Below are positions 15,516 to 50,178 of a stretch of 64,000 nt of DNA, one piece after another. The stretch is from assembly GCA_964372395.1 (NCBI GenBank), contig CAYJQV010000004.1:2984-66983 (forward strand). The letters are read 5' to 3'. The notes under the pieces were generated by a model. That model made no database searches and was not told where the DNA came from. It saw nothing but the letters and a program-made list of their open reading frames with translations. This DNA is from an uncultured Planctomycetia bacterium. Its GTDB lineage: Bacteria; Omnitrophota; Gorgyraeia; 1-14-0-20-64-10. A program made the translations under genes and the position numbers. Numbering within the stretch: position 1 is the first letter of the stretch; every line of letters begins with the position of its first letter.

Positions 15516-15905
15516 TTACAGAGAACCGGTCAGAGGAACCCGGGGTGCACGGCGGCGCTCTTCGGGGATGCCGGGAGGAGAGATGAGCTGGCGGACGAGG
15601 GTTCGGTCCGATTCCTCCATTCGCGTGAAGGAGATCCCCAGGCGGAACCGTCCGGCGTAGGGCAGGCAGTGAACCACGCGGCCGGTGATCTGCATGAGCC
15701 CCGGCGGGTGAGCGGGGAGGGGCAAGGCAGTGCGTGAGAATTCAAGCCGAACCAGCAGGCCCCACGGGAGAGAAACGTTGCTCAGGAGGCCGAGCCCATA
15801 CTCGCTGATGTCGTAGAGGAAGGCCTCGATCGGCCCGTCCGGCTTGTACACCGTCTGCGACCGCTCCGGATCTTCATGGACCTCCACGTTTACAGGGATC
15901 GGCAT
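15516..15905 (-). CDS. PilZ domain protein (c-di-GMP receptor-like)
   Basis: ~130 aa with PilZ-like motifs. Confidence 0.5.
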   Translation of the reverse strand: MPIPVNVEVHEDPERSQTVYKPDGPIEAFLYDISEYGLGLLSNVSLPWGLLVRLEFSRTALPLPAHPPGLMQITGRVVHCLPYAGRFRLGISFTRMEESDRTLVRQLISPPGIPEERRRAPRVPLTGSL

Positions 15906-15951
15906 TGCTAGCAACTATTCTATCACCCACCGCCCAGAGGAGGCCGGTATA

Positions 15952-18900
15952 ATGGAGAGGGTTAAGGTCGCCATGCCGAACAAGACGCTGGAGGTTTTGC
16001 TCAAGGAGGGAAGGGCCTTCCCGCCGCCGGAAGCTTTTGCCCGCCGCGCGAACGTCCGGGATCCCGGCGTGTACGAACAGGCCGCCAGGGACCCATTGGC
16101 ATTCTGGGAATCGTTCGCCGGGGAGCTGCACTGGTTCAGCCGGTGGGGCAAGGTGCTGGAGTGGGAGCTGCCGGACGCCCGCTGGTTTGTCGGCGGCAAG
16201 ACCAACCTCTCCTATAACTGCCTGGACCGCCACCTGTCCGGCGCGCGCAGGGACAAGCCGGCGATCCTGTGGGAGGGAGAGCCCGGGGAGGAGCGGCGCC
16301 TCACCTACGCCCAGCTGCACCGGGAGGTCTGCCGGTTCGCGCACGCGCTCGAGCGGCTCGGGGTGAAGCGGGGTGATCGTGTGACGATCTACATGCCGAT
16401 GGTGCCGGAGCTGGCGATCGCCATGCTCGCCTGCGCGCGGATCGGGGCCCCGCACAGCGTGGTCTTCGGCGGGTTCAGCGCCGAGGCGCTGGGGGACCGG
16501 CTCCGTGATTCGCAGTCCAGGGTGCTGGTGACCGCCGATGGGGGCTGGAGGCGGGGCTCTGTGGTGCCGCTCAAGAGGAGCGCCGACGAGGCGCTGGAGG
16601 CGGCCCCCTCCGTGGAGAAGGTGGTCGTCTTCCGGCGGTTGAAGGAATCGGGCTGTCCGATGAAGCCGGGCCGGGATCTCTGGTGGGAGGAGCTCGTGGC
16701 CGGGCAGCCGGACCAGCACGAGGCGGCTCGGCTCGATTCGGAGCAGATGCTGTACCTCCTGTACACGAGCGGGACCACCGGCAAGCCCAAGGGGATCGTC
16801 CACACCACCGGCGGCTACATGGTCGGCTGCTACGCGACCACGAGGTGGATCTTCGACCTGAAGGAGGAGGACACCTTCTGGTGCGTTCCCCCAGGAACCA
16901 AAGTGATCGCGAACCCAGAGCCCAAATCCATTGAGCAGATTAAGGTCGGAGATCGAGTTCTAGCACACGACGGGAGGTACTCTGAAGTCCGTCGACTTTA
17001 CAGGCGGCACTACGAAGGCGACCTCGTAAGGATCCAGACTCTGTATTGCGGCGAACCGTTCCTGCTGACCCCCAACCACTCTGTGCTCTGCGGACGAAAG
17101 GGGAGAACAGGGATTCTCTGGAAACCGGCAGGTGAACTGACGGAAAAGGATTTCGTCTTGCTTCCGAAACTCCGAGAAAACCAAGACCGGGAATTCATAA
17201 AGATATCCGCCGTCGTCAGGGGATGTGTGGTCGTCGGCGAGAGAGTCCGGCGCCCGAAGATCCGCTTTTCCCTGCCTGAGAAAATACCCCTTGATCCTCG
17301 TTTTATGCGTTTAGCAGGCTACTATCTTGCAGGGGGAAGCGTGGCGTCCAAAGGCCGCGCACTGCAGTTCTCCTTTAATCGGCGCGAGGAGCCTTATGCC
17401 GATGACGTCCTATCTCTTTTGGAGGAAATCTTCGGAATCAGCGGAAAGAAGGCATGGATCAATAACCTCTGCGAGATCCGGGTGGGCTCTGTACTGCTCG
17501 CCGAGTTCATGCCTGCCCTCTTTGGAAGCAAAGCCCCTAACAAGCGAATTCCGGACGAGTGGCTCTGTTTTCCCGATGGAAAGCTGGCCGAGCTGCTGAA
17601 GGGTCTTTGGCGGGGAGATGGCAGTGCGGATCGGGACTCGTTCAGGTTCCACACCACATCCGAAGTTCTCGCCCACCAGGTCAGGATGATTCTAACCAAG
17701 ATGGGCTTGCTGAGCTCGATCGGTTGTCGCAAGAGGGAGCGCATTGGGCCCAGCCGGATCGGCGGCAGAAGCATCATCGCCCGGCACGATTGCTATTGCA
17801 TAAAAGTGGGCGGAAGGGCGCTCCAAAAGCTCTCTGAAATCCTCGGGGTGCGCCATCCTTTTATCGGGAAGCGCATCTCGGTTCGGCGACGCGGCATGCG
17901 CTCGAAAAATTACCTGTGGTTGCCCATCCGGTCCGTCAAGCGGGAGTATTACGAGGGCGAAGTCTACAACATAGAGACCGACAAGCATTCCTATGTCCTG
18001 AGTAACATGGCGGTCCATAACTGCACGGCTGACATCGGTTGGGTGACAGGCCATTCGTACGTGGTTTACGGACCTCTGCTCAACGGGGCGACCACCCTCA
18101 TGTACGAGGGGGCGCCGGATCATCCGGGCAAGGACCGCTTCTGGCAGATCGTGGAGAAGTACCGGGTCAGCGTCTTCTACACCGCCCCCACGGCGATCCG
18201 GGCCTTCATCAAATGGGGAGAGGAGCTGCCCGGCGGTCATGACCTCACGAGCCTGCGGCTGCTCGGCTCGGTGGGGGAGCCGATCAACCCCGAGGCCTGG
18301 ATCTGGTACCACCGGGTGGTGGGCCACGGCCGCTGTCCCGTGGTGGATACCTGGTGGCAGACCGAGACCGGACAGATCCTGATCTCGCCCCTTCCCGGGC
18401 TGACGAAGCTCAAGCCCGGCTCGGCGACCCTTCCGTTCCCGGGGATCGAGGCGGACGTGGTGGACGACAAGGGGAATCGCTCCGATTCCGGCTACCTGGT
18501 GATCCGATCCCCCTGGCCCGGGATGCTGCGGGGAATCTACGGGGATCCGGAGCGCTACCGGGCCCAGTACTGGAGCCGGTTCCCCGGCCTTTACTTCACC
18601 GGCGATGGGGCGAAGCGGGATCCGGACGGCTGCTTCTGGCTGCTCGGCCGGGTGGACGACGTCCTGAAGGTGAGCGGCCACCGGCTTTCCACCATGGAGA
18701 TCGAGTCGGCGCTGGTGGACCATCCCTCGGTCGCCGAGGCGGCGGTGGTGGCCAAGCCGCATGAGATCAAGGAGAACGCCGTGGTCGCCTTCGTGACGCT
18801 CAAGTCCAGCGTCCGGCCCGCCGATGGTTTGACGGAGGAGCTCAAGGCGCACGTGGTGCGGAAGATCGGTGCCATCGCGCGGCCGGATGAGGTGATCCTG

Positions 18901-19050
18901 ACGGCCGAGCTGCCGAAGACCCGATCTGGCAAGATCATGCGGCGCCTGCTGCGCGACATCGCGGAGGGGAAGGCTCTTGGAGACACCACCACGCTGGCGG
19001 ACGCGGGCGTCGTGCAGGCGCTGAAGGAGAAGTATGGCGAGTCTGAGTGA
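15952..19050 (+). CDS. acs: acetyl-CoA synthetase (AMP-forming), interrupted by an in-frame intein (extein 1: 15952-16881; extein 2: 18022-19050)
   Basis: AGGAGG RBS with ATG at 15952. YTSGTTGKPKG P-loop. The conserved FW|CTADIGWVTGHSY motif is split by a 380-aa insert. The C-terminus is typical Acs (...KTRSGKIMRRLLR...). Confidence 0.9.
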   Translation: MERVKVAMPNKTLEVLLKEGRAFPPPEAFARRANVRDPGVYEQAARDPLAFWESFAGELHWFSRWGKVLEWELPDARWFVGGKTNLSYNCLDRHLSGARRDKPAILWEGEPGEERRLTYAQLHREVCRFAHALERLGVKRGDRVTIYMPMVPELAIAMLACARIGAPHSVVFGGFSAEALGDRLRDSQSRVLVTADGGWRRGSVVPLKRSADEALEAAPSVEKVVVFRRLKESGCPMKPGRDLWWEELVAGQPDQHEAARLDSEQMLYLLYTSGTTGKPKGIVHTTGGYMVGCYATTRWIFDLKEEDTFWCVPPGTKVIANPEPKSIEQIKVGDRVLAHDGRYSEVRRLYRRHYEGDLVRIQTLYCGEPFLLTPNHSVLCGRKGRTGILWKPAGELTEKDFVLLPKLRENQDREFIKISAVVRGCVVVGERVRRPKIRFSLPEKIPLDPRFMRLAGYYLAGGSVASKGRALQFSFNRREEPYADDVLSLLEEIFGISGKKAWINNLCEIRVGSVLLAEFMPALFGSKAPNKRIPDEWLCFPDGKLAELLKGLWRGDGSADRDSFRFHTTSEVLAHQVRMILTKMGLLSSIGCRKRERIGPSRIGGRSIIARHDCYCIKVGGRALQKLSEILGVRHPFIGKRISVRRRGMRSKNYLWLPIRSVKREYYEGEVYNIETDKHSYVLSNMAVHNCTADIGWVTGHSYVVYGPLLNGATTLMYEGAPDHPGKDRFWQIVEKYRVSVFYTAPTAIRAFIKWGEELPGGHDLTSLRLLGSVGEPINPEAWIWYHRVVGHGRCPVVDTWWQTETGQILISPLPGLTKLKPGSATLPFPGIEADVVDDKGNRSDSGYLVIRSPWPGMLRGIYGDPERYRAQYWSRFPGLYFTGDGAKRDPDGCFWLLGRVDDVLKVSGHRLSTMEIESALVDHPSVAEAAVVAKPHEIKENAVVAFVTLKSSVRPADGLTEELKAHVVRKIGAIARPDEVILTAELPKTRSGKIMRRLLRDIAEGKALGDTTTLADAGVVQALKEKYGESE
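16882..18021 (+). mobile_element. full-size intein with LAGLIDADG homing-endonuclease domain inside acs
   Basis: Starts with Cys (CVPPGTKVIANPEP...). Block B TPNH. LAGLIDADG-like motifs LAGYYLAGGSV and LLKGLWRGDGS. Ends ...MAVHN followed by the +1 Cys of the extein. Confidence 0.85.
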
Positions 19051-20445: not shown

Positions 20446-20769
20446 TCAGCCGGGACCCTCCCTCTCAGGCAGCAGGGTCACCTCCAGGGATGTCGTTTGC
20501 CACCAGATCCAACGGCCGAATGGGCCCGCCCAGGCGACCCAGGCGAACGGCAGGATGCTGGTGGCACGATAGCGGGTATTGCACGACACGCAGTAACAGG
20601 TGAGCCCCATCCGCTGGAGCGGGCCGCGGAGGAAGGTTCGCCGGACCGGCACGGCAGTGGCAAGCCGCCCGCGGCAGGAGGGGCAGAAGCGAGGGGCGGG
20701 GTAGAACTGATAGGCGGGCAGGGGTGCGGTGGGAGGCGCGGGTGGGGGCGGAGACGGGGGCAGCGCCAC
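20446..20769 (-). CDS. small Pro-rich zinc-ribbon membrane protein (DUF983-like), hypothetical
   Basis: GTG start overlapping the stop of the upstream FAD oxidase. CPSC...CVSC zinc ribbon followed by a hydrophobic helix. Strong GC3 coding bias. Lies between two same-strand genes. Confidence 0.4.
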   Translation of the reverse strand: MALPPSPPPPAPPTAPLPAYQFYPAPRFCPSCRGRLATAVPVRRTFLRGPLQRMGLTCYCVSCNTRYRATSILPFAWVAWAGPFGRWIWWQTTSLEVTLLPEREGPG

Positions 20770-22289
20770 TACAGCTCCTGGAGTAGCTCGATGGGAAAGA
20801 TGTTCCCTGGGCTGAGGATCCCCCGGGGATCGAGCCCCTTCTTCACACGCGCCATCTCCTTCAGCCCCTCGCGTCCTACCATCATCTCCAGGTAGGGGAC
20901 GCGCAGCTTTCCGATCCCATGCTCGGCGGAGATCGTACCGCCCAGCTGAATTGCCTTGCGGGCGATCCGCTCGTAGAAGGCAAGGGCACGCTTGAACTCC
21001 TCCTGGGTCGCGGGAAGGAAGTTGGCGTGCAGATGGTTGTCCCCGAGGTGTCCCCAGAGGGTGGCAGCCATCTGCGACTTCGGCAGCTCCTCCAGAGTGA
21101 AGCGGAACATCTCCTCCGCTCCGGGGTCCGGGACCGCGCAGTCGGTCCCGACCTTCCGGAAACCGTTCCGGGCCACCTTCTCGTTGACGAGCACCGGCAG
21201 GTCGTACCGGAATTTCCGGAACTCGCGGTGGTCCTCCGGCCGATGGGAGAACCAGCAGTCGGATGCACTGGCCCCCGCCGACTCGGAGGCCCCCGTCCAT
21301 TCCTGGAGGAGCGCCTCCTGCTCCGATTTGCTGCACTCCTGCTCGAAGAGCAGGGCCGCCCCCGCGTGCTCCGGCGTGTCCGGATGCTTCTCTGAAAGGA
21401 GCCGCAGGGAACAGGAGTCGAAGAACTCCAGGGCACGGGGGGAAAGCCCCATTCCCTGCACCCGTGGGGTCAGACCCTCTGGGGTCTGACCCCAGAGGGT
21501 CTGACCCCATTCTGCCTGGCCCTTGGCCTTGGCTGCGAAGCGGAAACAGTCCAGCTCCGTATTGAAGAAGAGGATCCCGCTGAAGACCGACTCGGGCCTC
21601 GGCAGGACTTTCAGCTCGATCCGGGTCACCACCCCCAGCGTTCCCTCGGATCCCACAAAGAGATCCACAAGATCCATTCCATCCTCGGCGAAATAGCCGG
21701 CCGCGTTCTTGGGGCAGCGGGACCGGTAGGTGGGCACCGGCAGGTCCGCGGAGGCGCCAGCCGGGAAGGGAATCCGGAGGATTCCCTGGCGGGCGGTAAT
21801 CTCTCCGCGCCGGATCTCCAGAACCTCCCCGCTGGCCAGCACGACGCGCAGGGCTTGCACGTACGCGCGGGTCGGGCCGTACTTGAACGACCGTGAACCG
21901 GAGGCGTTGGTGGCCACGTTCCCCCCGAGCGAGGCCTTCCTCTCTCCGGGGTCCGGCGGATAGAAGAGCCCTCGCGGCTCCAGTGCGGCGTCCAGCTCGG
22001 AGAGGGTAACGCCCGGCTCAACGATGGCGATCCCTGCGGGAGAGGTCCTGTCCCACCGGACCTCCAGGATCCGGTTCATCTTCTCCGTGCAGAGGACCAC
22101 GCCCCCTTGAGGGACCCTCGCCCCGGTCAAGCCGGTTCCCGCGCCGGAGATCGTCACGGAAATTCCCTGCTTCTGGAAGGTGCCGAGGAGGGAGGCCACC
22201 TCACCTTCGGAGGTCGGCAGGAAGATCCGGTCCGCCTTCCCGCGAAAATGGGAGGCGTCCCGCAGATGGTCGTCCGCCGCCTGGTTCAC
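20769..22289 (-). CDS. FAD-linked oxidase (GlcD / D-lactate dehydrogenase family) carrying an in-frame repeat-derived insertion
   Basis: FAD-binding PCMH domain (...TISGAGTGLTGARVP...) and a C-terminal FAD-oxidase domain. A 15-aa WGQTLWGQTPEGLTP insert is encoded by the palindromic repeat at 21466-21508. Confidence 0.8.
   Translation of the reverse strand: MNQAADDHLRDASHFRGKADRIFLPTSEGEVASLLGTFQKQGISVTISGAGTGLTGARVPQGGVVLCTEKMNRILEVRWDRTSPAGIAIVEPGVTLSELDAALEPRGLFYPPDPGERKASLGGNVATNASGSRSFKYGPTRAYVQALRVVLASGEVLEIRRGEITARQGILRIPFPAGASADLPVPTYRSRCPKNAAGYFAEDGMDLVDLFVGSEGTLGVVTRIELKVLPRPESVFSGILFFNTELDCFRFAAKAKGQAEWGQTLWGQTPEGLTPRVQGMGLSPRALEFFDSCSLRLLSEKHPDTPEHAGAALLFEQECSKSEQEALLQEWTGASESAGASASDCWFSHRPEDHREFRKFRYDLPVLVNEKVARNGFRKVGTDCAVPDPGAEEMFRFTLEELPKSQMAATLWGHLGDNHLHANFLPATQEEFKRALAFYERIARKAIQLGGTISAEHGIGKLRVPYLEMMVGREGLKEMARVKKGLDPRGILSPGNIFPIELLQEL
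21466..21508. repeat. palindromic repeat element copy A (GGGGTCAGACCC-tct-GGGGTCTGACCCC-agag-GGTCTGACCCC)
   Basis: Perfect 12-bp inverted repeat plus a third arm. Lies inside a CDS and is in frame. Confidence 0.8.
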
Positions 22290-26425: not shown

Positions 26426-27013
26426 CTAGATGAGATACAGCAGTGGAAAGAGAAAGATCCAGACCAGATCCACGAAATGCCAGTACAGCCCGGAGATCTC
26501 GACGATGTGGCTGCGCGCCCTGAAGAAATCACTCCGGAAGGTCGACGCCAGGACCCAGAGATTGGCGATCACCCCGCCGAGCACATGAAGCCCATGGAAG
26601 CCGGTCAGGGTGAAGTAACAGTCCCAGAAGAGGCCTGTTCCGGGCAGATGGCCGTGGGCAAACTTCACCGAGTACTCGTACGCCTTGACCCCGAGGAAAG
26701 CGGCCCCCAGCAGGATCGTCAAGGCGAGGAAGAGCCGCAGCCGGGCCGCGTCCTGCTGATGAACCGCGGCGACACCCAGCGCCATCGTCATCGAGCTCGA
26801 GAGAAGGATGAAGGTGTTGAGGGCCGCCAGCGGGATCTGGAGCTCCTCGCCCGGCTGCGGCCAGTGGGGCAGCCCCGCGCGCAGCACGATGGAGGCCCCG
26901 ATGAGGCCGGTGAAGAACATGACCTCCGAGGCCAGGAAGAGCCACATCCCCAGCTTGGGCGAGGGGATCCCGGTGGAGGTCGCCTCCAATGCATGTGCCG
27001 CTGGCTGCGTCAT
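26426..27013 (-). CDS. ctaE: cytochrome c oxidase subunit III
   Basis: ...GMWLFLASEVMFF...HGLHVLGGV... His-rich TM helices. ATGA overlap with the upstream gene. Confidence 0.85.
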   Translation of the reverse strand: MTQPAAHALEATSTGIPSPKLGMWLFLASEVMFFTGLIGASIVLRAGLPHWPQPGEELQIPLAALNTFILLSSSMTMALGVAAVHQQDAARLRLFLALTILLGAAFLGVKAYEYSVKFAHGHLPGTGLFWDCYFTLTGFHGLHVLGGVIANLWVLASTFRSDFFRARSHIVEISGLYWHFVDLVWIFLFPLLYLI

Positions 27014-28792
27014 GAGATCACCCGATCCAGCGTCAGCGTGGTCAAAAGAACCGGCAGGTACACGACCGAGGCCAGGAAGAGCCGATGGGCGGTCTGTCCT
27101 GAGCGGGCCCGTGCCGTGGCAAGCCCCAGCCCCAGGAAGATGACCCCACCCGCCAGTGCCACCGAAAAGTAGAGCCATCCGGCGAAGCCCAGACCCACCG
27201 GGAGAAGACTGACCGGCAGAAGCGCGGCCAGGTACAGAACCACCTGCCGGAAGGTGAGGCCCCCTTCCGGATCGAGAACCGGCAGCATCCGGAAGCCGGC
27301 CTGCCGGTAGTCGGACCGGAACTGCCAGGCGAGCGCCAGGAAATGAGGGAGCTGCCAGAGGAAGAGGATGGAGAAGAGCCACCAGGCCGGCAGGCCCAGC
27401 ATCCCCCGCGCCGCTGCCCAGCCGATCATGGGTGGCAGGGCGCCCGGCACCGCCCCCAGCAGAGTGCAGAGCGCCGAGCGGCTCTTGAGCGGCGTGTAGA
27501 TGAAGAGGTAGGTGACCAGGGTCAGGGCAGCCAGCGCCGCGGCCAGCAAGTGAACCCCGAAGCTGAGCGTGGCCAGGCCGGCGATCGATAGGGTGACCCC
27601 CACAGCCAACCCTGCTTCCGGTGACACCCTGCCGGAGGGGATGGGGCGCGTGCGGGTGCGAGACATCCGGGAATCGGCCTGCCACTCCATCGCCTGATTG
27701 AGCGCGGCCGCTGCTGCGCCCACCAGCGTGGTTCCGATGAGTGTTGCGATGAACCGCCCCCAGGGGAACGGGCCCACTTGGCCCATGAGGAATCCGAGCA
27801 GAACCGTGAGGACCGACAGGATCGTCAACCGCGGCTTGGTGAGCTCCAGGAGGTCGGCAAGGCGCGCGCCACCGGACTGGCGGCGCGAGAGAGGCGCAGA
27901 GCCGGGCAGGGGGGCGAGAGCCGCGCGCAGGGAGTGGGTGGTGAGAACCGCTGAGGTGGCCAGGAGGAGAGCTCCCACGGCGACATGACCCGTGGCGGTG
28001 AACGGATTCGAGCCCTGGAGGAAGGTCAGGAGACCCAGGAGGATTTGCAGCGGAACGAGCAGAAGGAGAATCCGCGCCGGCCCGACGTATTCGGGCCGGT
28101 CGGAGTAGTCCCTGAGACAGACGAAGGCGGCGCGCAGGAGAACCGCCCCGGCCAGGATCGCTCCGGTTCCGTGCGCCGCCAAGAGCGGGGCGCTCCATCC
28201 GAGATGCCGCAGGGCCGCACCTAGCAGGAGCTGAAGGTAAACCAGCGCGGTCATCGAGAGGAACAACCCCCAAGGCACGCGTCGAGGGGTCAGACCCTCT
28301 GGGGTCAGACCCTGGAGGGTCTGACCCCAGAGGGTGTTCCAGCCGGGGCCGAGCACTGTGGCGAGGACTGCCAACAGCGCAAAGAAGGTCTGTCCCAGCG
28401 TTGCATGGGCGATGGAGATTGGCGCCGGCAGGAGGAGCAGCACCGTCAATCCCCCCAGGATCCCCTGCAGGACCACGGCGGCGAATGCCGCCAGCGCCAG
28501 CCGGCGAACCCAGCGGCGCTTCTCAGCGGCCAGGATGGCGAGGGTGAGCAGCAAGGTCAACAGCCCCACACCCGCGGCAACCAGGCGGTGGGTGTGCTCG
28601 TAACGGATGCCGCCCACCATCGGGGGGAACAGGGAGCCGTACGAAAGGGGCCAGTCCGGGACGGCGAGCCCGGAGCCGGTGGAGGTGACCAGCCCGCCTG
28701 CGATGATCAGAAGAAAGCCAGCCGCCGCGGTGAACCAGGCGAAAACCTGAAGGGGTCTGACCCCAAGAGGCTTTTCGGGGTCAGACCCCATG
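27010..28792 (-). CDS. fused haem A synthase (CtaA/COX15, N-terminal) / protohaem IX farnesyltransferase (CtaB/COX10, C-terminal); carries one internal and one N-terminal palindromic-repeat insertion
   Basis: N-terminus ...GGLVTSTGSGLAVPDWPLSYG... is CtaA. The C-terminal half has the UbiA-family motif NQAMEWQADSRMSRTRTRP, which is CtaB. The start is placed at the ATG inside the repeat (28790-28792), and the true start is uncertain. An in-frame LWGQTLQGLTPEGLTP insert is present. Confidence 0.75.
28286..28328. repeat. palindromic repeat element copy B (GGGGTCAGACCC x2 direct, then GGGTCTGACCCC)
   Basis: Inside the ctaA-ctaB CDS, in frame. Confidence 0.8.
28752..28789. repeat. palindromic repeat element copy C (GGGGTCTGACCCC-N12-GGGGTCAGACCCC) at the ctaD/ctaA junction
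   Basis: Contains the ctaD stop codon (TGA inside GGGGTCTGA on the minus strand) and a candidate ctaA start ATG. Confidence 0.75.
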
Positions 28793-30526
28793 GGGTTTCT
28801 CCGTCTGCAGCTGCCAGTCCCGTCTTGCCCCTGGCACGGAGTACTCGTATGGCCCGCAGTGGACGGTGGGTGTGGTGGCGAAGTTCCCGTGGGGCGGAGG
28901 AGAAGGGACGGTCCACTCCAGTGTCGTCGCCTCCCAGGGATTCTCATTCACCCTCTTGCCGCGGAAGAGAGATGAGAAGAAGTTATAGACGAAGAGAAGC
29001 TGCGACGCGAACAGGCAGAAGGCGGCCACACTCATCATCCGGTTCAACCCCACCAGATTCGCCAGGGCCGGATACTGCGTGTAGTCGTAGATCCGCCGCG
29101 GCATGCCGCCCAGGCCCAGGATGAACATCGGGAACATGACCGCATTGAAGAGCAGGAAGGAGAGCCAGAAATGGATCTTCCCCAGCCGCTCGTTCATTGC
29201 GCGGCCGAACATCTTGGGGAACCAGTAGATGATGCCGGCGAAGGCGCCGAAGAGGGAGCCGCCGAAGAGGACGTAGTGGATGTGCCCGACGACGAAGTAG
29301 GTGTCGTGCAGGTACATGTCCACCGGGGTGGAGCCGAGGAAGATGCCGGTGAGGCCCCCGATGATGAACATCGAGATGAAGCCCAGCGCGTGGAGCATCG
29401 GCGTGGTCAGCCGGATGGATCCGCGCCAGAGGGTGCCCAGCCAGCTGAACACCTTGACGCCGGTGGGGACCGCCACCGCCATGGTGGAGATCATGAAGGT
29501 GGTTCCCAGGACCGGATTCATCCCGGCGTGGAACATGTGGTGCGCCCAGACGAGGAAACCGACCGCCCCGATCCCCACGGAGGCGTAGGCGATCGCCCTG
29601 TAGCCGAAGAGCGGCTTCCGGGAGAAGTTGGGCAGGATGTCGGAGATAAAGCCCATCGCCGGCAGGATCATGATATAGACCGCCGGGTGGGAGTAGAACC
29701 AGAAGAGGTGCTGCCAGAGGACCGCCTGCCCGCCGGCGTAGGGAAGGGGATTGCCGTCAACGATCATCCCGGCCGGCAGGAAGAAGCTGGTCCCCAGCGT
29801 CCGATCCAGGAGCAGCAGGATGAGGGCTGAGGCGAGGACCGGCGTCGCCAGCAGGGTGAGCACCGCCGTCGTGAAGAGGGCCCAGATGGAGATCGGCAGA
29901 CGATGGAAGCTCATCCCCGGGGCGCGGTGATTGACGATGGTGGCGATGTAGTTCACCGACCCGAGGATGTTGGAGAACCCCAGCAGGATGAGCCCCGCCG
30001 TCCAGAAGGTCTGGCCCGCCCCCATCGTCTCCTTCGCCCCGGACAGCGGCGGGTAGGCGGTCCAGCCGGCGGCGGCGGCCCCCCCCTCCGCCCAGAACCC
30101 GAGCATGACGGTGATCGCCGCAGGCGGGAAGAGCCAGTAGGAGAGCATGTTGAGCCGCGGGAACGCCATGTCGGGCGCGCCCACTTTAAGCGGGATGAGG
30201 TAATTGCCGAAGGCGCCCGCCAGGAGCGGGATGATCCCGAAGAAGATCATCGCCGAGCCGTGCATGGTGAAGAGGACGTTGTAATACTCCGGCACCATGT
30301 AGCCGCCCGGCATCCCCTCCGGGGCGAACTTCTCCATGAAGGGCAGCGGTGTCCCCGGCCAGCCGAGCTGCCAGCGCATCAGCATGGCCAGCACGCCGCC
30401 GAAGAGCATGAAGAGCAGCGAGCTGAAGAGGAACTGGATGCCGATGATCTTATGGTCGGTCGAGAAGATGTACCTCCTCAGAAAGGGGACTGTCCCCCCC
30501 CGCCCCGGATGCGCTGCTTCACTCAT
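28781..30526 (-). CDS. ctaD: cytochrome c oxidase subunit I
   Basis: 581 aa with haem-copper oxidase His ligands throughout. The C-terminal ...KPHGV and the stop are encoded by the palindromic repeat. Confidence 0.9.
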   Translation of the reverse strand: MSEAAHPGRGGTVPFLRRYIFSTDHKIIGIQFLFSSLLFMLFGGVLAMLMRWQLGWPGTPLPFMEKFAPEGMPGGYMVPEYYNVLFTMHGSAMIFFGIIPLLAGAFGNYLIPLKVGAPDMAFPRLNMLSYWLFPPAAITVMLGFWAEGGAAAAGWTAYPPLSGAKETMGAGQTFWTAGLILLGFSNILGSVNYIATIVNHRAPGMSFHRLPISIWALFTTAVLTLLATPVLASALILLLLDRTLGTSFFLPAGMIVDGNPLPYAGGQAVLWQHLFWFYSHPAVYIMILPAMGFISDILPNFSRKPLFGYRAIAYASVGIGAVGFLVWAHHMFHAGMNPVLGTTFMISTMAVAVPTGVKVFSWLGTLWRGSIRLTTPMLHALGFISMFIIGGLTGIFLGSTPVDMYLHDTYFVVGHIHYVLFGGSLFGAFAGIIYWFPKMFGRAMNERLGKIHFWLSFLLFNAVMFPMFILGLGGMPRRIYDYTQYPALANLVGLNRMMSVAAFCLFASQLLFVYNFFSSLFRGKRVNENPWEATTLEWTVPSPPPHGNFATTPTVHCGPYEYSVPGARRDWQLQTEKPHGV

Positions 30527-31178
30527 TGGCCTTGGTCTCCTTCAGCCAGGTTTCAAACTCCGCCGGGGACTCAGCGGTCACGAATCCCCGCATGCGGTAG
30601 TGGCCCAAACCGCACAGCTCCGCGCAGCGGATCTCGAAGACCCCGGGCCGGGTCACCTCCAGCCACGCCTCCGTCGGCATCCCCGGCACGGTGTCCTGCT
30701 TCAGGCGGAACTCCGCCACGAAGAAGCTGTGGATCACATCCTTGGATCGAAGCTTGAGGAGCACCGGCTGTCCGACGGGCAGGTGCAGCTCGTTGAGGCT
30801 CGCCACGTCGTCCTCCGTCTCGAGCTGGCCGTCGGCTCCGGGGTAGCGGATGTTCCAGGCGAACTGCTCGGCCAGGATCTCGACCTGGAGCGCGTCGGGG
30901 GGCCGGTAGCCGGGGTAGCGGATCTCCGCCCAGACCCGCTGGCTGGCGAGGGTCAGCCCCGCCAGGATGAGCGCCGGGATCACCGTCCAGATGACCTCCA
31001 GGCCGGTGTGGCCGTGGACGTAAGAGGCCTTCCGATCGGCGCGCGAGCGGTACCTTAGCACGAACAGCAGAAGCCCGCCCTGGACCAGGAAGAAGAAAAA
31101 GCCGGTGATCCAGAGGATCGCCCAGAAGAGCTGATCAACCTTCGGGCCGTACGTGGAGGCCGACTCAGGAAACCACAT
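30519..31178 (-). CDS. ctaC: cytochrome c oxidase subunit II (CuA; no fused cytochrome c domain)
   Basis: Two N-terminal TM helices. HSFFVAEF...CAELCGLGHYRM is the CuA site. Confidence 0.85.
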   Translation of the reverse strand: MWFPESASTYGPKVDQLFWAILWITGFFFFLVQGGLLLFVLRYRSRADRKASYVHGHTGLEVIWTVIPALILAGLTLASQRVWAEIRYPGYRPPDALQVEILAEQFAWNIRYPGADGQLETEDDVASLNELHLPVGQPVLLKLRSKDVIHSFFVAEFRLKQDTVPGMPTEAWLEVTRPGVFEIRCAELCGLGHYRMRGFVTAESPAEFETWLKETKANE

Positions 31179-36586: not shown

Positions 36587-37384
36587 ATGCGCCGGATTTC
36601 CGTCCTCGCGATCTCAGCCCTTCTTTATTCTTCCCTTTTCCCGCGCCCGGTTTTCCCCCTGAACCTGGATCGTCTGGACGCCGAGGAGCTCCGCTTGAGG
36701 GAATCGATCATGAGGCGGCTCGTTCCGCTCGCCGACCGGCGCAGGCAAGAGGGAACCGCACCCCTCATCACCTTCGAGGAGCTGTACGCGGGCCTGAGCC
36801 AGCGGGAGATCGAGTTCCTCGAGCAGTTCCGCCGGGTGGACCCGGCGGAGGTGGGCGGCTCCAGCCGGCGGCTTCCGCCGCCAGCGGCCGACAGCGAATT
36901 CGTCCGGCTGGACCGGCAGGTGGTCCTGCGCGAGGGCAAGCCGATCCGGCTCGATGCACAGTATCTGCCGCGGACAGCGCACGAGGCGTACCGCCGGATG
37001 ATGGCGGCCATGGAGGAGGATCTCGGCAAGCGGCTGCTGGTCGAGTCCGGATACCGCTCCCCGGCCTATCAGCTCTACCTCTTCCTCTACTACATGCCAA
37101 AGCACGGCCACTCCGTCCGGGAGACCAACCGCCACGTCGCCCTGCCCGGGTGCAGCGAGCATGGGAGCCCCGATTTTCAGGCGATCGACTTCATCACCCC
37201 GGAGGGGGTGAACGGCGAGGATCGGCCGGAGGAGTTCGAGGAGCTGCAGGAGTACGGCTGGCTGCGGGCTCGCGCGCGGGAGTTCGGCTTTCGCCTGTCG
37301 TACCCTCGCGGCGGTCCCTCCGCATTCGAGCCATGGCACTGGCATTGGGAGAAAGGGAACTTTTCGGAAAGGGACTTTCCATGA
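36587..37384 (+). CDS. peptidase M15 family (VanY-like D-Ala-D-Ala / L,D-carboxypeptidase), secreted
   Basis: Signal peptide MRRISVLAISALLYSSLF. ...SGYRSPAYQ... and ...HGSPDFQAIDF... are Zn-ligand motifs. Confidence 0.7.
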   Translation: MRRISVLAISALLYSSLFPRPVFPLNLDRLDAEELRLRESIMRRLVPLADRRRQEGTAPLITFEELYAGLSQREIEFLEQFRRVDPAEVGGSSRRLPPPAADSEFVRLDRQVVLREGKPIRLDAQYLPRTAHEAYRRMMAAMEEDLGKRLLVESGYRSPAYQLYLFLYYMPKHGHSVRETNRHVALPGCSEHGSPDFQAIDFITPEGVNGEDRPEEFEELQEYGWLRARAREFGFRLSYPRGGPSAFEPWHWHWEKGNFSERDFP

Positions 37385-38943
37385 AGCCGGTGTCTCCCAA
37401 GGCGGAGCGCCCCAGCCTTTCCTGGAAGGGGCTGTACAAGGAGGCGGCGCTCTACCAAGCGGCGCTGAAGCTTTACACCAAGGCCCTCTTCCAGTGGAGG
37501 AAAGCCCTCTCCACCTCCTCCGATGGGAAGACGCTCTACGATTTTGCCCGGACGGGTCTGGAGCGCTTGGATTCGGTTCATGGAAGGCTCGAGTCTGCCA
37601 CGTTCCACTTCCGCGCGGGGACCGCCCGCACCCACAACTTCAACGGAAAGATCCGAACGCTGTACATCTATCCATGGGAGGAAAAGGTGGTGGATCTGCT
37701 GCTCTACCGGCTGATGAATGCGAAATTCCACGCCCTTTTTTCACCCTGCTCTTACGCCTACCGGTGGCGCGGGTACGGCGTAGACCTCTGCCAGAGGCGC
37801 CTCGCGTCCCAGATCGGACGGAAGGGCAAGCCCCTCTATCTCTTCAAGCGGGACATTGCCAGGTTCTTCGATTCCATCGACCATTCGATTTTGCTGGAGC
37901 GGCTCTCCGAATACGTCCCGCAGGAGGATTACCTCTGGCAGCTTCTCCGGCAGCGGGTGGAGTTTCCCTATGAAGCAGGCGGGCGGATCGTACGGGCGGC
38001 GCAGGGGGTTCCTTTCGGGACCCCGGTGGCCTGTTTCTTTGCGAACCTGTATCTGACGTGGCTGGACCGCCAGCTGGACCAGCGAAAGGGCCTGGCGTAC
38101 TTCCGCTATGCAGATGACCTGATCGGGATCGGATCCGATCCCGATGTGGTGCTGGCTGCGGCCGACTGCTGCGACCGGATGCTGGAGGAGCTGAAACTCT
38201 CCGTCAAGCCGAGCCAGTTTCTGCAGGGAGTTGTCTGCGCCACCCCGACGGAGCGCCCGCCCTTTGCCTGGATCACAAGGTTCAGGCACCTGGGACTGGA
38301 ATTTCGGTGCGATGGCCGCACAGGCCTTTCGAGGGACAAGAGGCGGAAGATCTGCAACCTTTTCCAGTATGCCTTCCGCCGCAAGGCAGGGCGGTTTCGC
38401 AAGATTTCCTCTCCGCAAAAGCGGGCCGAGCTGGCGGTGGAGATCGCCCGAAGGGTTCTGGACCAGCAGCTCCGGCACGTCAGCATCATCGACTACTACC
38501 TCAGGCACGTCCGGGATGAAGAGCAACTGCGGCAGATCGACCGGTGGCTGGCGGAGGAGGTTCTCTCCATCTCTCTGGGCGGGCACCGAAGGGGACATTT
38601 TCGTCGGATCTCCTTCCGGCGGTTGCGCGAGATGGGCCTGCCCTGCCTACGGCACCGCAGCCGCCTGATCCGCCACGGCCAGATCAAAACCTCCTTCTTC
38701 CGTTGGAAGGAGTATCAGCAACAGAAGGCAAAGCGAGGGGGATGGCGCCAGGCTGGAGGTCGGAAAAACCCCAGCCTTTTCCCCGTGCCTGGAAGCATCC
38801 GCCGCGAGCACCCCGTGGGAGAGGGAGGCGGACTGTCGACAGGCGGTATTGAAGACAGATTCGCTGAAGCGAATCTGTCGTTGTCCTGCCATCCCCCTTC
38901 GCTTCCATCCAAGAGAGAGGAGCCGACCGATGGGGCTTCTTGA
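37381..38943 (+). CDS. reverse transcriptase (RNA-directed DNA polymerase), retron / group-II-intron-like lineage, free-standing
   Basis: ATGA overlap with the M15 stop. RT motifs 1/2 (RTLYIYPWEEKVVDLLLYRLMN; SYAYRWRGYG), motif A (LFKRDIARFFDSIDHSILL), motif B (QGVPFGTPVACFFANLYL), motif C FRYADDLIGIG (YADD at 38107-38118), motifs 6/7 (LKLSVKPSQF...FRHLGLEF). No En/HNH or maturase-intron context. The C-terminal ~100 aa is low-complexity and may be non-coding. Confidence 0.85.
   Translation: MKPVSPKAERPSLSWKGLYKEAALYQAALKLYTKALFQWRKALSTSSDGKTLYDFARTGLERLDSVHGRLESATFHFRAGTARTHNFNGKIRTLYIYPWEEKVVDLLLYRLMNAKFHALFSPCSYAYRWRGYGVDLCQRRLASQIGRKGKPLYLFKRDIARFFDSIDHSILLERLSEYVPQEDYLWQLLRQRVEFPYEAGGRIVRAAQGVPFGTPVACFFANLYLTWLDRQLDQRKGLAYFRYADDLIGIGSDPDVVLAAADCCDRMLEELKLSVKPSQFLQGVVCATPTERPPFAWITRFRHLGLEFRCDGRTGLSRDKRRKICNLFQYAFRRKAGRFRKISSPQKRAELAVEIARRVLDQQLRHVSIIDYYLRHVRDEEQLRQIDRWLAEEVLSISLGGHRRGHFRRISFRRLREMGLPCLRHRSRLIRHGQIKTSFFRWKEYQQQKAKRGGWRQAGGRKNPSLFPVPGSIRREHPVGEGGGLSTGGIEDRFAEANLSLSCHPPSLPSKREEPTDGAS
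38854..38879 (+). ncRNA. perfect 11-bp stem / 4-nt loop hairpin (GACAGATTCGC-TGAA-GCGAATCTGTC), candidate structured RNA element at the RT / Zn-ribbon junction
   Basis: Seen directly. The lower-GC, non-coding-looking stretch 38700-38930 surrounds it. Confidence 0.35.
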
Positions 38944-41529: not shown

Positions 41530-42546
41530 ATGAGTAGATCCGCTTCGAGAATCTTCCCGGGGTTCGTTCTTGCGCTGCTCATCGGGCTTTGCCCGGAGGG
41601 CTTCCCGAACGTTCCGGTGCGTTCCTTCCGGCTGACGTATGAGGTGAGCCTGCCCGCCATCCCGAACGAGGCGGGTGAGCTGAAGATCTGGGTTCCGCTG
41701 AGCCGGTCCGACGAGATTCAGAGGATCCGGTGGCGGGTGATCCAGGTCCCCTATGCCTACCGGCTGACGAAAGACCCGCAGTACGGCAACGAGATCCTCT
41801 TCCTGGATCTGAAGCGGCCGCTCCCGCCGGCCCTGGATCTGGCGATCCATTACGACGCGGAGGTCCGGGAGGTTCGGCCGGCGATGGAGAGGGCGGAGCC
41901 GTTCATCCCCGACGAGGTCCGCCGCCGGCTGGCCCTTCATCTCGAATCGAATCAGCTCATGGTGGTGGACGACGGGGTTCGGGAGCTGGCCCGGTCGGTG
42001 ACGGCCCATGCGGGCACACCGGCGGAGAAGGCCAGGGCGATCTTCCAGTACGTCATCGAGCGGATGCGCTACGAGAAGGAGACGCCCGGCTGGGGTCAGG
42101 GCGATACCCTGCGGGCCTGCGCGGTCGGGGCGGGCAACTGCACCGATTTCCATTCCCTCTTCATCTCGCTGGCGCGGGCCTCCGGCATCCCGGCCCGGTT
42201 TGCGATCGGCCTGCCGGTGCCGCAGAAGCCGGAGGGGGAGATCCCGGGGTATCACTGCTGGGCGGAGTTCTTCCTGCCGGGTGCCGGCTGGGTTCCGGTG
42301 GATGCGTCAGAGGCCTGGAAGGACCCGCAGCGCACGGATTACTTCTTCGGCACGTACGACCCGAATCGGCTGACGGTGAGTCTCGGGCGGGACGTCCAGC
42401 TCGAGCCGAAGCCGGCCTCCAGCGATTTCATCAACATCTTCTTCTTCCCTTATGTGGAGTTGGACGGGATGCCGTTGGAGAAGGGGCGGTTTCAGACGAG
42501 GTTTCGGTTCCGCGATTTGAACAGCAGAGGAGGCGTTGATGCGTAG
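41530..42546 (+). CDS. transglutaminase-like cysteine protease domain protein (secreted)
   Basis: Signal peptide. ...GAGNCTDFHSLF...H...D... is the Cys-His-Asp core. Confidence 0.7.
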   Translation: MSRSASRIFPGFVLALLIGLCPEGFPNVPVRSFRLTYEVSLPAIPNEAGELKIWVPLSRSDEIQRIRWRVIQVPYAYRLTKDPQYGNEILFLDLKRPLPPALDLAIHYDAEVREVRPAMERAEPFIPDEVRRRLALHLESNQLMVVDDGVRELARSVTAHAGTPAEKARAIFQYVIERMRYEKETPGWGQGDTLRACAVGAGNCTDFHSLFISLARASGIPARFAIGLPVPQKPEGEIPGYHCWAEFFLPGAGWVPVDASEAWKDPQRTDYFFGTYDPNRLTVSLGRDVQLEPKPASSDFINIFFFPYVELDGMPLEKGRFQTRFRFRDLNSRGGVDA

Positions 42547-42763
42547 AGCGCGTTGGATGACTGCGGCGGTGGTTTCGAGCGTCGCGGGGCTTGCCCTGAT
42601 CGGTTGCCAGAGGCAGCAGCCGGCGGGCAAGGGCAAGGAGCACGGCGGCAAGGAGCATGCGGGCGCGGCGCTGAAGGAGCACGGCGGCAAGGAGCACGGC
42701 GGGGCCGCGGTGGCCAAGGAGCACGGCGGCAAGGAGCACGGCGGGGCGACCGTCACGAATTAG
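42536..42763 (+). CDS. small lipoprotein with six KEHGG(A) repeats
   Basis: Lipobox LIGC. Repeats KEHGGKEHAG / KEHGGKEHGG x3. Confidence 0.55.
   Translation: MMRRARWMTAAVVSSVAGLALIGCQRQQPAGKGKEHGGKEHAGAALKEHGGKEHGGAAVAKEHGGKEHGGATVTN
42625..42750. repeat. tandem ~15-bp repeats (aaggagcacggcggc) encoding the KEHGG units
   Basis: Direct inspection of the sequence. Confidence 0.6.
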
Positions 42764-43334: not shown

Positions 43335-44168
43335 GTGCGGGCTTGGTTGCGGCTTTGCAGTTCCAGGCGGTATAAGAATGCGGCCCGCTCGCGGCAGCTT
43401 TGCGAGCGGGCCGCTTCTTTTCTGGTCCCGCGCCTGCGGGCCGGCCCCGCGCAGTGGGTCGCCCTCGGCGTGGGGCAGGGGGAGAAGGAGATGCTTTTCC
43501 TGCGGCCTCTGGCGCCTCGGCAGAGGATCGAGTACGTACCGTGGGACACCAGTCAGACTCTCCTCGAAATGGCCGGCCGGCGCGCTCTGGGCTGCGGGCT
43601 TTCCGTTTGGGCCATGAAGGCGGACCTGGAGCAGGAGTCGCACTGGAAAGCCGTTCCGGCCGCTCCGCGTGGGAGCCGGAGGGTCCTCTCGGTTTTCGGG
43701 AACAGCCTGGGGGCCGTGAGGCTGGATCGGTTGCTCACCCGCGCCAGCCAGCTCCTTCACCGCGGAGACTGGTTCCTGGTGGACGGGGAGCTCCATGCCG
43801 GAGAGGCAACGCTCGCCGGCTACGATCATCCGGTCAACCGCGCCTTTGCCTTTGCGCCGCTTGAGGCGGCCGGATTCTCGCGGGCCGACGGGGAGCTTCG
43901 CTTCACGCTGCGCGCCCCGAGCGGCGGCTCGCCGCTGGGGCGGCTGGAGAAGCAGTTTGACCTGAAGAGACCGGTCGCCCTGCGCCTGGGCGGGGAGATG
44001 CTCCGGTTCCGGAGGGGAGATCGGATCCGGATGAGTCCTTCCGACAAGTGCGACCTCGAGGCCATGACGGCGCGGCTCGGGCAGGACCGGCTGTTTCAAG
44101 TCGAGGAGCGGCTCCTCTCGTCGGATCGGAGGTTCGCCCTCTGGATCCTGCGCAGGAGCGGCCGGTGA
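43335..44168 (+). CDS. EgtD-like (Methyltransf_33) SAM-dependent methyltransferase, N-terminally short or disrupted
   Basis: ...WVALGVGQGEKEMLFL... (compare ELGSGTSEKT), ...RIEYVPWDTS... (compare FIPFDVD), ...LSVFGNSLGAV... (compare FLGSTIGN). The upstream in-frame region still encodes an EgtD-like N-terminus but has no canonical start codon. Confidence 0.45.
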   Translation: MRAWLRLCSSRRYKNAARSRQLCERAASFLVPRLRAGPAQWVALGVGQGEKEMLFLRPLAPRQRIEYVPWDTSQTLLEMAGRRALGCGLSVWAMKADLEQESHWKAVPAAPRGSRRVLSVFGNSLGAVRLDRLLTRASQLLHRGDWFLVDGELHAGEATLAGYDHPVNRAFAFAPLEAAGFSRADGELRFTLRAPSGGSPLGRLEKQFDLKRPVALRLGGEMLRFRRGDRIRMSPSDKCDLEAMTARLGQDRLFQVEERLLSSDRRFALWILRRSGR

Positions 44169-44836
44169 AGGAGACCGCGCAGGCCTACGACCGGCTGGCG
44201 GCCGTTTACGACGAGCGGTGGCGGCACTATCTGGACGAGACCTTGGACTGGGTCTCGAGGCACGTGGAGGCCCGCTGGCCGCTCCGCCTGCTGGACGTCG
44301 GGTGCGGCACCGGCGAGCTCATCCGGCGGCTCAAGACCCACATGCGGGAGACGTTCTTCGTCGGGCTGGACCCTTCCGCCGGGATGCTGGGCCGGGCGGA
44401 TCTGAAGTTCCCGGAGGGGGAAGGCCGCACGGCGCTGGTGCAGGCTACCGCTGACAGGATCCCTTTGAAGGACGGCTCCTTCGACTGGGTCGCCTGCGTC
44501 AACAGCCTGCACTGCTTCGCAGAACCCGAGCGGGCGACCATGGAGATGGCGCGCGTCTTGAGGCCGGAAGGGAAGCTCCTTCTCATTGACTGGAGCGGGG
44601 AGTCGTGGCTGTGCCGGCTGCTGGACGCCTGGTGCCGCCGGTTCGATCCGGCCCATGTCCGGATGTACCGGCCGGACGAGGCGAAGGAGATGCTGGAGCG
44701 GGCCGGGCTTTCCCTGCTGGCGATTGAGAACTTCCGGGTGGGCGGGCCGGCCGGCCTTCGCCTGTGGGAGATGATGTCGCTGACGGCGGTCAAGCCGGCC
44801 TCCGGGCTGCCCGCGTCAAGCGGGTTGGCCGCGTGA
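44165..44836 (+). CDS. class I SAM-dependent methyltransferase (Methyltransf_11/25-like)
   Basis: GTGA overlap with the upstream stop. [11 protein letters not shown] motif I. Confidence 0.7.
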
Positions 44837-44840
44837 CCTG

Positions 44841-44880
44841 TTCCCCCGGAGGTCAGACCCCCAGGGGGACAGGTCCCTTA
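44841..44880. repeat. degenerate copy D of the palindromic repeat (GGTCAGACCCCC-AGGGGGACAGGTCCC)
   Basis: Intergenic. Partial match to the GGGGTCAGACCC family. Confidence 0.4.
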
Positions 44881-49767: not shown

Positions 49768-50106
49768 ATGGCACGCAACCGATCTTGGATGCTCGTTGTG
49801 ATCTTGACGGGGATGGTGGCACTCGCCTCGGCGGGGGTCTCCTCTGCGGAGGAGGCGACCGCCTGGAACAAGCTGCAGCGGGGCGCGGTCAACACGACCA
49901 CCGGATGGCTGGAGATGATGGTTCAGCCGGTCGAGGGAGCGAAGGCCGAGTCCCCCTTCATGGGGGTGGTCACCGGCTTTGGGAAGGGGATCCTGCTGGG
50001 ACTGCAGCGGACCGGCCTGGGACTGGCGGACAGCCTCTCCTTTCCGGTCGGGCCGTACGATCGGCCCGCCATGGAGCCGGAGACCCTCTTCGGCCCGGTC
50101 AAGTAA
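49768..50106 (+). CDS. exosortase system-associated protein, TIGR04073 family
   Basis: 112 aa, signal peptide. ...GAVNTTTGWLEMM... is the family core. Confidence 0.6.
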   Translation: MARNRSWMLVVILTGMVALASAGVSSAEEATAWNKLQRGAVNTTTGWLEMMVQPVEGAKAESPFMGVVTGFGKGILLGLQRTGLGLADSLSFPVGPYDRPAMEPETLFGPVK

Positions 50107-50139
50107 GCTTAGTCGGCGTATCCGTCGTTTCAGCGGCAC

Positions 50140-50178
50140 GGGGTCAGACCCTCAAGGGGTCTGACCCCGTTTTTTCGG
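50140..50178 (+). terminator. Rho-independent terminator formed by palindromic repeat copy E (GGGGTCAGACCC-tcaa-GGGGTCTGACCCC + GTTTTTTCGG)
   Basis: Perfect 12-bp stem, 4-nt loop and a U-run. Confidence 0.8.

Follow-up and report, generated by a model that had tools for sequence, protein, structure and literature searches.

A dispersed palindromic repeat probably inserted at the ctaD/ctaA-ctaB stop/start overlap and read by both genes in an uncultured bacterium

How did one perfect palindrome come to lie across the end of one cytochrome c oxidase gene and the beginning of the next, and to be read by both? The question is raised by a 64,000-nucleotide (nt) stretch of DNA (positions 2,984 to 66,983 of contig CAYJQV010000004.1, assembly GCA_964372395.1), hereafter called the window, from an uncultured Planctomycetia bacterium that the GTDB places in the Omnitrophota. 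An earlier note, made from the letters of the sequence, had described a palindromic repeat at the junction of ctaD and ctaA on the minus strand and had proposed that it was inserted at the two gene ends and co-opted into both reading frames. The analysis reported here makes it likely that the junction is one copy of a dispersed palindromic repeat family, with the unit GGGGTCWGACCCC, which inserted in this lineage at the ATGA overlap of ctaD and ctaA-ctaB. The two genes are as follows.

28781–30526, minus strand: ctaD, cytochrome c oxidase subunit I (CoxI), 581 amino acids, PF00115.
27010–28791, minus strand: ctaA-ctaB fusion, heme A synthase plus heme O synthase, 593 amino acids, PF02628 and PF01040.

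On the minus strand, positions 28795–28752 read CCCC ATG GGG TCT GAC CCC GAA AAG CCT CTT GGG GTC AGA CCC C, which in gene orientation is CCCC-ATG-GGGTCTGACCCC-gaaaagcctctt-GGGGTCAGACCCC; with its surroundings (28802–28741) the junction is GGAG AAACCCC ATG GGGTCTGACCCC GAAAAGCCTCTT GGGGTCAGACCCC TTCAGGTTTTC. The element occupies 38 bases and consists of two 13-nt arms, which are exact reverse complements of each other, with a 12-nt loop between them. Its parts and the signals around it are listed below.

28777–28789, minus strand: first (5′) arm, unit GGGGTCTGACCCC, T-centred; it holds the ctaD stop and in the other frame encodes G2-S3-D4-P5 of CtaA.
28765–28776, minus strand: loop, 12 nt, GAAAAGCCTCTT; it encodes E6-K7-P8-L9 of CtaA.
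28752–28764, minus strand: second (3′) arm, unit GGGGTCAGACCCC, A-centred; it encodes G10-V11-R12-P13 of CtaA.
28743–28798, minus strand: extended hairpin with 22-nt imperfect arms (28743–28764 and 28777–28798) of 86% complementarity.
28781–28783, minus strand: ctaD stop TGA, within the first arm; the ending GGG GTC TGA is also found in a second lineage (L127).
28789–28791, minus strand: ctaA-ctaB start ATG, whose G is the first base of the first arm; this start was chosen by the gene callers (P0121, 593 amino acids).
28799–28802, minus strand: GGAG, a Shine-Dalgarno-like motif 7 nt upstream of the ATG, with a putative function read from the sequence.

The 3′ end of ctaD reads ...CAG ACG GAG AAA CCC CAT GGG GTC TGA, and the protein ends in KPHGV. 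The codons for G and V and the stop lie in the first arm, in agreement with the proposal of the earlier note that the repeat supplies the last codons and the TGA of CoxI. ctaD thus ends at the TGA of the T-centred unit, and ctaA, which overlaps it by 11 nt, reads arm, loop and arm as ten extra residues from its only usable ATG. The note had also placed this ATG in the partner arm, which turned out to be mistaken: the letters concerned, GGGGTCAGACCCCATGGGG, are the plus-strand reading of the TGA-bearing first arm, and the partner arm encodes Gly-Val-Arg-Pro. The idea that the repeat supplies the CtaA start stood in part, in that this ATG is used and abuts the arm; only its G belongs to the 13-nt unit, and comparison with the repeat-free relative L126 indicates that the ATG is probably ancestral. 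As judged from the sequence, the ctaD stop is clearly supplied by the repeat, whereas the ctaA start appears merely to be abutted by it.

Use of a downstream CtaA start, the possibility that the earlier note had set against its own proposal, was also looked at. The canonical in-frame starts for ctaA are only those at −52 codons (deep within ctaD), at 0 (the ATG at 28791) and at +57 codons. A start at +57 codons would remove the first transmembrane segment (TM1) and the invariant TSTGSGLAVPDWPLSYG motif of CtaA, so no downstream start can replace the ATG at 28791. The GGAG motif falls within the Thr-Glu codons of the CoxI QTE motif, which are conserved, and it stands before the ATG in L001 and L002 as well, two relatives without the repeat; the exact CoxI and CtaA-CtaB proteins are present in public collections with the same start. 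The start annotation of CtaA-CtaB was accordingly fixed at 28791.

Palindromes can cause assembly errors, and the source is a metagenome-assembled genome (MAG), which is what an assembly or sequencing artefact at the palindrome would call for. The 101-nt junction is identical in four other assemblies, namely one NCBI MAG contig and three Logan assemblies from separate runs, as is a 101-nt segment covering a second copy of the repeat in a loop of CtaA; the MAG contig differs from the window by 2 mismatches over 7.8 kb, and both reading frames are intact. The chance of an artefact is therefore negligible.

The junction unit does not stand by itself. When up to one mismatch is allowed, the window contains 11 copies of GGGGTCWGACCCC where 0.36 would be expected, and none of 100 shuffled sequences reached 11 (0/100); no 11-mer is commoner in the window than the one at the core of the unit. 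The unit is a 13-nt perfect palindrome, and the 11 copies fall at five loci, with arrays spaced at 15–16 bp or 25 bp, the usual forms being hairpin doublets or triplets with 15-nt spacing.

28752–28789, minus strand: doublet at the ctaD/ctaA junction, the fifth locus of the family.
28286–28328, minus strand: CtaA-loop triplet, three units with 15-nt spacing, in frame (WGQTLQGLTPEGLTP), in the loop between TM4 and TM5.
21466–21508, minus strand: triplet in a flavin adenine dinucleotide (FAD) oxidase gene, a 43-nt near-perfect palindrome of three units, in frame (WGQTLWGQTPEGLTP), in the open reading frame (ORF) 20769–22289, PF01565/PF02913.
50140–50168, plus strand: intergenic doublet, a 15-bp hairpin followed by TTTTTT, terminator-like (50138–50170), after ORF 49768–50106.
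44849–44861, plus strand: single unit with one mismatch, in the spacer after the methyltransferase gene 44048–44836, beside a weak terminator-like hairpin.

The CtaA-loop triplet forms a hairpin of −45 kcal/mol within conserved heme A synthase coding sequence, and the FAD-oxidase triplet folds at −54.6 kcal/mol (z = −6.6). The two triplets are near-identical 43-nt sequences in unrelated genes, suggesting copying between sites rather than independent origin. All three frames of the A-centred unit are open (GVRP, GSDP and GQTP); the T-centred unit has two open frames (GSDP and GLTP) and a TGA in the third. Five of the six combinations of frame and version are thus open, and each strand of a hairpin doublet has a single TGA; this accounts for the copies that stay in frame as well as for the stop that the repeat supplies. 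Around the five loci neither conserved flanking sequence nor a clear target duplication was seen, and such flank repeats as might be proposed (AAACCCC/AGACCCC; CAGG..GAATGGGG) are both short and ambiguous. A gathering scan of the whole window against Rfam matched no family, and a full-text search of PMC and bioRxiv for the unit sequence returned only unrelated primers and viral sequences.

Comparison of the gene ends with those of orthologues, the check that the earlier note had put forward, showed that the closest relatives lack the element. The nearest by CtaA-CtaB identity are L001 (92%) and L002 (81%), and no GGGGTCWGACCCC unit was found anywhere in the 9.0 kb of L001 or the 5.3 kb of L002. 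Their junction is compact, GGAGGAGCGATGAGACTC (...CAGACGGAGGAGCGATGAGACTC...), with an ordinary ATGA stop/start overlap, and the window junction is 41 nt longer. L126, L129 and L130 likewise use the ATGA overlap. These results support insertion of the repeat at the two gene ends.

In L126 the junction reads ...GAAAAATGAAACCCCTTCAGGTTTTCGC (MKPLQVF...), with the start region ATGAAACCCCTTCAGGTTTTCGC. This sequence indicates that AGACCCCTTCAGGTTTTCGC of the window, which starts in the second arm, corresponds to ancestral ctaA from codon 2 on; the last 7 nt of the second arm (AGACCCC, 28758–28752) match codons 2–3 of ancestral ctaA as seen in L126 (AAACCCC). The piece gained can be placed as follows.

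28759–28788, minus strand: putative inserted DNA, 30 nt, GGGTCTGACCCCGAAAAGCCTCTTGGGGTC, as suggested by the alignment.

Deleting these 30 nt directly after the ATG gives ATGAGACCCCTTCAGG / ATGAGACCCCTTCAGGTTTTCGC (MRPLQVF), which is like ATGAAACCCCTTCAGGTTTTCGC in L126. Put in terms of the element, removal of the left unit, the loop and the right unit without its last 7 nt gives the ancestral-like ATGAGACCCC, at a single site and in an ambiguous alignment. From these sequences the present ATG is probably the ancestral ctaA start, with the element inserted directly after it and in frame for ctaA, and the last 7 nt of the right arm would have pre-existed at the target. A simple insertion of this kind would have abolished the stop of the ATGA overlap. 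The spacer between GGAG and ATG is the 7-nt AAACCCC in the window versus GAGCG in L001, which points to a further small change here, of 1–2 nt. A 7-nt target duplication (AAACCCC...AGACCCC) was considered as a simple model and rejected because the ancestral ATG must directly precede A(A/G)ACCCC.

Both proteins were changed at their ends, as the earlier note had anticipated. The CoxI tail is KPHGV versus ER in L001, three residues longer. Among the 40 best orthologues, what follows the conserved QTE is a short tail of varying length, about 1–10 residues, and the length of the window's tail is unremarkable and within the normal range. The N-terminus of CtaA is redefined by the gain of GSDPEKPLGV, 10 residues, at a place where the tails before TM1 vary widely among orthologues. 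At the other two in-frame copies, the window is 42 nt longer than L001 in the CtaA loop and 60 nt longer than L125 at the FAD-oxidase triplet and its flanks; the frame is intact in each, and both insertion sites are length-variable in their families. The relative P0243 has a different tandem insertion (AQRLALAEAPPRAP twice) at the same FAD-oxidase loop. In an AlphaFold model of the CtaA-CtaB fusion, built on 70 sequences (mean predicted local distance difference test score, pLDDT, 92.4), both repeat-encoded segments are coil outside the helices, with a pLDDT of 53 for residues 1–10 and, for residues 160–173, blocks of 78 and 63.

A perfect 13-bp palindrome in arrays spaced at 15–16 bp or 25 bp would also suit an operator, with a palindrome-recognising protein binding the units and so controlling the cox operon along with other genes. 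Most copies are in-frame coding additions that close orthologues lack, their spacing and number vary, the neighbouring genes are functionally unrelated, and no regulator gene is evident nearby among the ORFs of the window. We therefore regard operators as very improbable.

The same unit was found at the same junction in a second lineage, represented by the MAG contigs L127 and L211, whose CoxI proteins cluster with each other at 90% identity or more and are about 72% identical to that of the window. Both carry a doublet with the A-centred unit first and a different loop at the 3′ end of ctaD (L127, 1761–1799; L211, 2773–2811). In L127 ctaD ends ...AGG GGT CAG ACC CCT TTG GGC ATT AAA GGG GTC TGA, and CoxI terminates in RGQTPLGIKGV at the unit's TGA. 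In L211 an 11-nt upstream indel changes the frame, and CoxI ends in QQGSDPVGH at a TAA in the loop. The ctaA ATG lies 6 nt past the doublet in both. Because the A-centred unit comes first here and the T-centred unit comes first in the window, an order that does not depend on the strand, and because the loops are unrelated, the doublets of L127 and L211 are read as insertions independent of the one in the window. L129 (2930–2975) and L130 (430–475) were considered as cases of a shared insertion, since CoxI ending in KGV and CtaA beginning MKSDPKESL resemble GV and MGSDPEKPL of the window; this was rejected, as their DNA, GGGTGTATGAAAAGCGACCCT, has a different Ser codon and no unit. The likeness of the peptides is probably a coincidence or a similarity at the protein level.

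Elsewhere in relatives, a doublet of L128 (5413–5440) occupies the CtaA loop that has the triplet in the window (WGQTPRGLTPP), and L167 has a doublet in a CtaB loop (549–584, GVRPLFNLGSDP) and a single unit in CoxIII (1965–1977, GSDP); in-frame units are thus found in CtaA, CtaB, CoxIII and the FAD oxidase across several lineages. Among 80 more distant metagenome CtaA-CtaB loci (363 kb), perfect units occur in L167 only, implying that the family is no general feature of CtaA-CtaB operons. Relatives were sampled at cox loci only, so recurrence at the junction mainly shows how scarce permissive sites are there.

On a wider scale, doublets were found in many phyla and at many GC contents (at least 118 stretches, L007–L124, from 596 Gb of species-representative genomes), among the matches listed being a type with a 3-nt spacer in Oxalobacteraceae. 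IMG/VR has 36 stretches with the doublet pattern (L212–L247), versus 1, 13, 0, 2 and 7 for five control palindromes of the same composition. These counts hint that the unit recurs unusually often; there were few controls, and chance among hairpins could account for some of the breadth. The element also appears to insert beside GACCCC-like half-sites. As a tentative extension, which we think possible but doubtful, GGGGTCWGACCCC would be a widespread cross-phylum family of REPIN-like mini-elements adapted to intragenic life, a portable linker/stop module that remodels loops and termini, including those of respiratory enzymes.

The junction RNA is predicted to fold at −42.1 kcal/mol (z = −4.05), with part of the GGAG paired and the ATG embedded in the minimum-energy structure; the equivalent repeat-free region of the closest relative has z = +0.4 and no special structure. 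It may be asked whether such a hairpin has been selected for regulation, as a partial intrinsic terminator or as a 3′-end stabiliser, either of which would keep the mRNA of the structural subunits (ctaC-ctaD) above that of the catalytically needed heme A/O synthases. The hairpin is very stable and is followed by UUCAGGUUUUC, the doublet at 50138–50170 forms a textbook terminator-like hairpin with TTTTTT, and L127/L211 carry a doublet at the same junction. Hairpins of the REP/BIME kind are known to stabilise upstream mRNA and to attenuate transcription. On the other side, a consensus scan does not flag the junction as terminator-like (12-nt loop, interrupted U-tract, tail UUCAGGUUUUC), the T-rich run is ancestral ctaA coding sequence that is also present in repeat-free L126, and the closest relatives manage without any hairpin. 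Recurrence at the junction is expected anyway, since relatives were looked at only in their cox loci, which offer few permissive sites. The reading of the junction as an intrinsic terminator was dropped on the negative consensus scan, the copy at 50138–50170 being the one that has the form of a terminator, and a selected regulatory element in the wider sense seems unlikely.

If a dispersed repeat was inserted, the mobile piece would be a 30-nt segment comprising the left unit, the loop and all but the last 7 nt of the right unit, which entered just behind the ancestral ATG, beside the pre-existing AGACCCC; a later change of 1–2 nt upstream would have brought the unit's TGA into the ctaD frame. 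It could have been tolerated through the open reading of five in six frame and version combinations and through the acceptance by both proteins of variable tails at these places. The family probably spreads as REPINs do, with a single-stranded hairpin moved by a tyrosine (RAYT/IS200-like) transposase; the REPIN-like asymmetry of the putative mobile piece and the organisation in doublets and hairpins make this the most likely mechanism. The element is said to work like a REPIN rather than to be one because no RAYT or other transposase was found among about 50 ORFs of the window and three of the five loci are not extragenic.

At the level of expression, the mRNA hairpin of −42 kcal/mol would bury the initiation region of ctaA, whose translation would then depend on ribosomes finishing ctaD, with the first arm unfolded and reinitiation taking place 8 nt upstream of the stop; a review describes models in which coupling works by RNA unfolding or by reinitiation (PMC12548453), and these would fit. 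The net effect on expression is probably small, and any regulatory role, whether hairpin-enforced coupling or attenuation, is one that we infer only.

Several points weigh against insertion of a mobile repeat as set out here. A simple 30-nt insertion by itself leaves the TGA out of the ctaD frame, so that a second small change (1–2 nt) must be assumed, and the exact boundaries of the insertion are ambiguous. The Pfam search of about 50 ORFs, which covered the 64 kb of the window, found no Y1_Tnp/RAYT or other transposase, and mobility is for this reason deduced from distribution alone. RAYTs are typically single-copy genes, usually flanked by their repeat. Three of the five loci are within genes or overlap them, which sets the family apart from classical REPs. 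The empty sites of repeat-free relatives resemble the unit in part: AAACCCC in L126 (about 3001–3012), GGGTCTGTCTCCCC in L125 (about 1860–1880) and GGATCAAACC in L002 (about 520–535), which could reflect a target preference for half-sites, decayed old copies or a local origin. The putative regulatory effect is drawn from sequence and predicted folding. Secondary structure just past the stop of an upstream gene has been reported to lower coupling efficiency (PMC12548453), so the sign of the hairpin's effect is uncertain and could go either way.

The unit-like empty sites also bear on a local origin, in which template switching or slippage copied the half-site AGACCCC into a hairpin and gene conversion then made the copies alike. 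The 15-nt (5-codon) period of the triplets is typical of slippage, and the different tandem insertion of P0243 at the same FAD-oxidase loop would fit as well. Near-identical 43-nt triplets in two unrelated genes, the same 13-mer at five loci in 64 kb, and the same unit in several other lineages and in other cox genes require copying between distant sites, contrary to a local origin, which we consider improbable. Insertion of a copy of the dispersed family is thus the reading that we retain.

The junction belongs to a minus-strand cytochrome c oxidase operon, in which coxB (30519–31178), ctaD and the ctaA-ctaB fusion are followed by coxC (26426–27013), a subunit IV gene, SCO1, DUF420 and MTHFR. 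Other features were noticed in the window. A stand-alone reverse transcriptase (ORF 37150–38943, plus strand, RVT_1) has RT_UG26 as its best PADLOC match (E = 7e-36) and a GC content at third codon positions (GC3) below that of its neighbours; it scored far below the cut-off of the group II intron reverse transcriptase model. This RT_UG26-like enzyme lies 6–9 kb from the nearest units and has no evident link to them. The acetyl-CoA synthetase ORF 15844–19050 (plus strand, 1068 amino acids) contains an intein with a LAGLIDADG homing endonuclease (Pfam Intein_splicing and LAGLIDADG_3, residues about 347–726). The small ORF 42536–42763 (plus strand) has a lipoprotein-like signal (…LIGC) and a His-rich (KEHGG)n stretch from a 15/42-nt tandem repeat at 42632–42747.

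What the junction illustrates is that a very small repeat can rewrite the ends of two essential, translationally coupled genes and break neither, one arm giving a stop codon and the remainder being taken up as a disordered tail at the N-terminus. In annotation, the odd peptides GSDP, GVRP, GLTP and GQTP of this clade are accordingly to be read as translated repeat DNA. The junction also raises the questions of whether a hairpin over a stop/start overlap tightens or weakens the coupling between CoxI and heme A/O synthase, and of whether REP-like elements can be adapted to intragenic life, as Rickettsia palindromic elements (RPEs) are.

Among known systems, the REP/REPIN repeats of Pseudomonas and Enterobacteria (PMC3116915, PMC3337134) are alike in their short palindromic units, mostly arranged as inverted hairpin doublets with a variable spacer, and in their many dispersed copies, clusters and tandem arrays, here 11 units at five loci in 64 kb. 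The junction forms a hairpin of this kind (13-nt arms, 12-nt loop), and the doublet at 50140–50168 folds likewise. In Pseudomonas fluorescens the excised REPIN product comes away without the final ~6 bp of the right REP, which stay at the site (PMC3116915); the putative mobile piece at the junction would likewise lack the last ~7 nt of the right unit, as judged from a single site and an ambiguous alignment. The GGGGTCWGACCCC unit differs in being only 13 nt long and perfectly palindromic, and no RAYT is found among the ~50 ORFs of the 64-kb window. REPs are, moreover, extragenic by definition, whereas copies here lie in the CtaA loop, in the FAD oxidase and at the ctaD/ctaA ends.

For copies within genes the likeness is to RPEs (PMC2229807, PMC10969869), palindromic repeats that lie in frame in conserved functional genes and add a peptide at permissive surface sites, as do the additions to CtaA (+42 nt) and the FAD oxidase (+60 nt) relative to close orthologues, with the frames intact. 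RPEs are about 100–150 bp long, encode a conserved peptide and are confined to Rickettsia, whereas the elements here are 38–43 nt of 13-nt units in an unrelated high-GC lineage. Small repeats of the Correia/NEMIS and ERIC types (MITEs, miniature transposable elements with inverted repeats) and pneumococcal SPRITE (PMC2229807, PMC10969869) also lie between and within genes, some with open frames fused to host ORFs, and some (SPRITE) resemble Rho-independent terminators, as does the copy at 50138–50170. They differ in being 100–170 bp long with terminal inverted repeats and target duplications; MITEs are defined by such repeats, a target-site duplication and a length of about 50–500 bp, whereas the elements here are 29–43 nt and share no conserved flanks.

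For the junction itself, MIRUs (summarised in PMC12548453) are mobile repeats that insert at operon start codons while downstream translation stays coupled to the upstream frame. Here too the insertion would lie just after the ctaA ATG, with an 11-nt overlap, the upstream GGAG kept and coupling presumed. MIRUs differ in having longer tandem units with their own small ORF and a −4 overlap, whereas the element here has no separate ORF and is absorbed into both gene ends. By analogy, MIRUs are the nearest functional counterpart of the junction and RPEs that of the in-frame copies. The surprise for a specialist is moderate, as such events are known for other repeat families; seen beside these systems, the junction is best described as a REP/REPIN-like repeat with RPE-like and MIRU-like behaviour.

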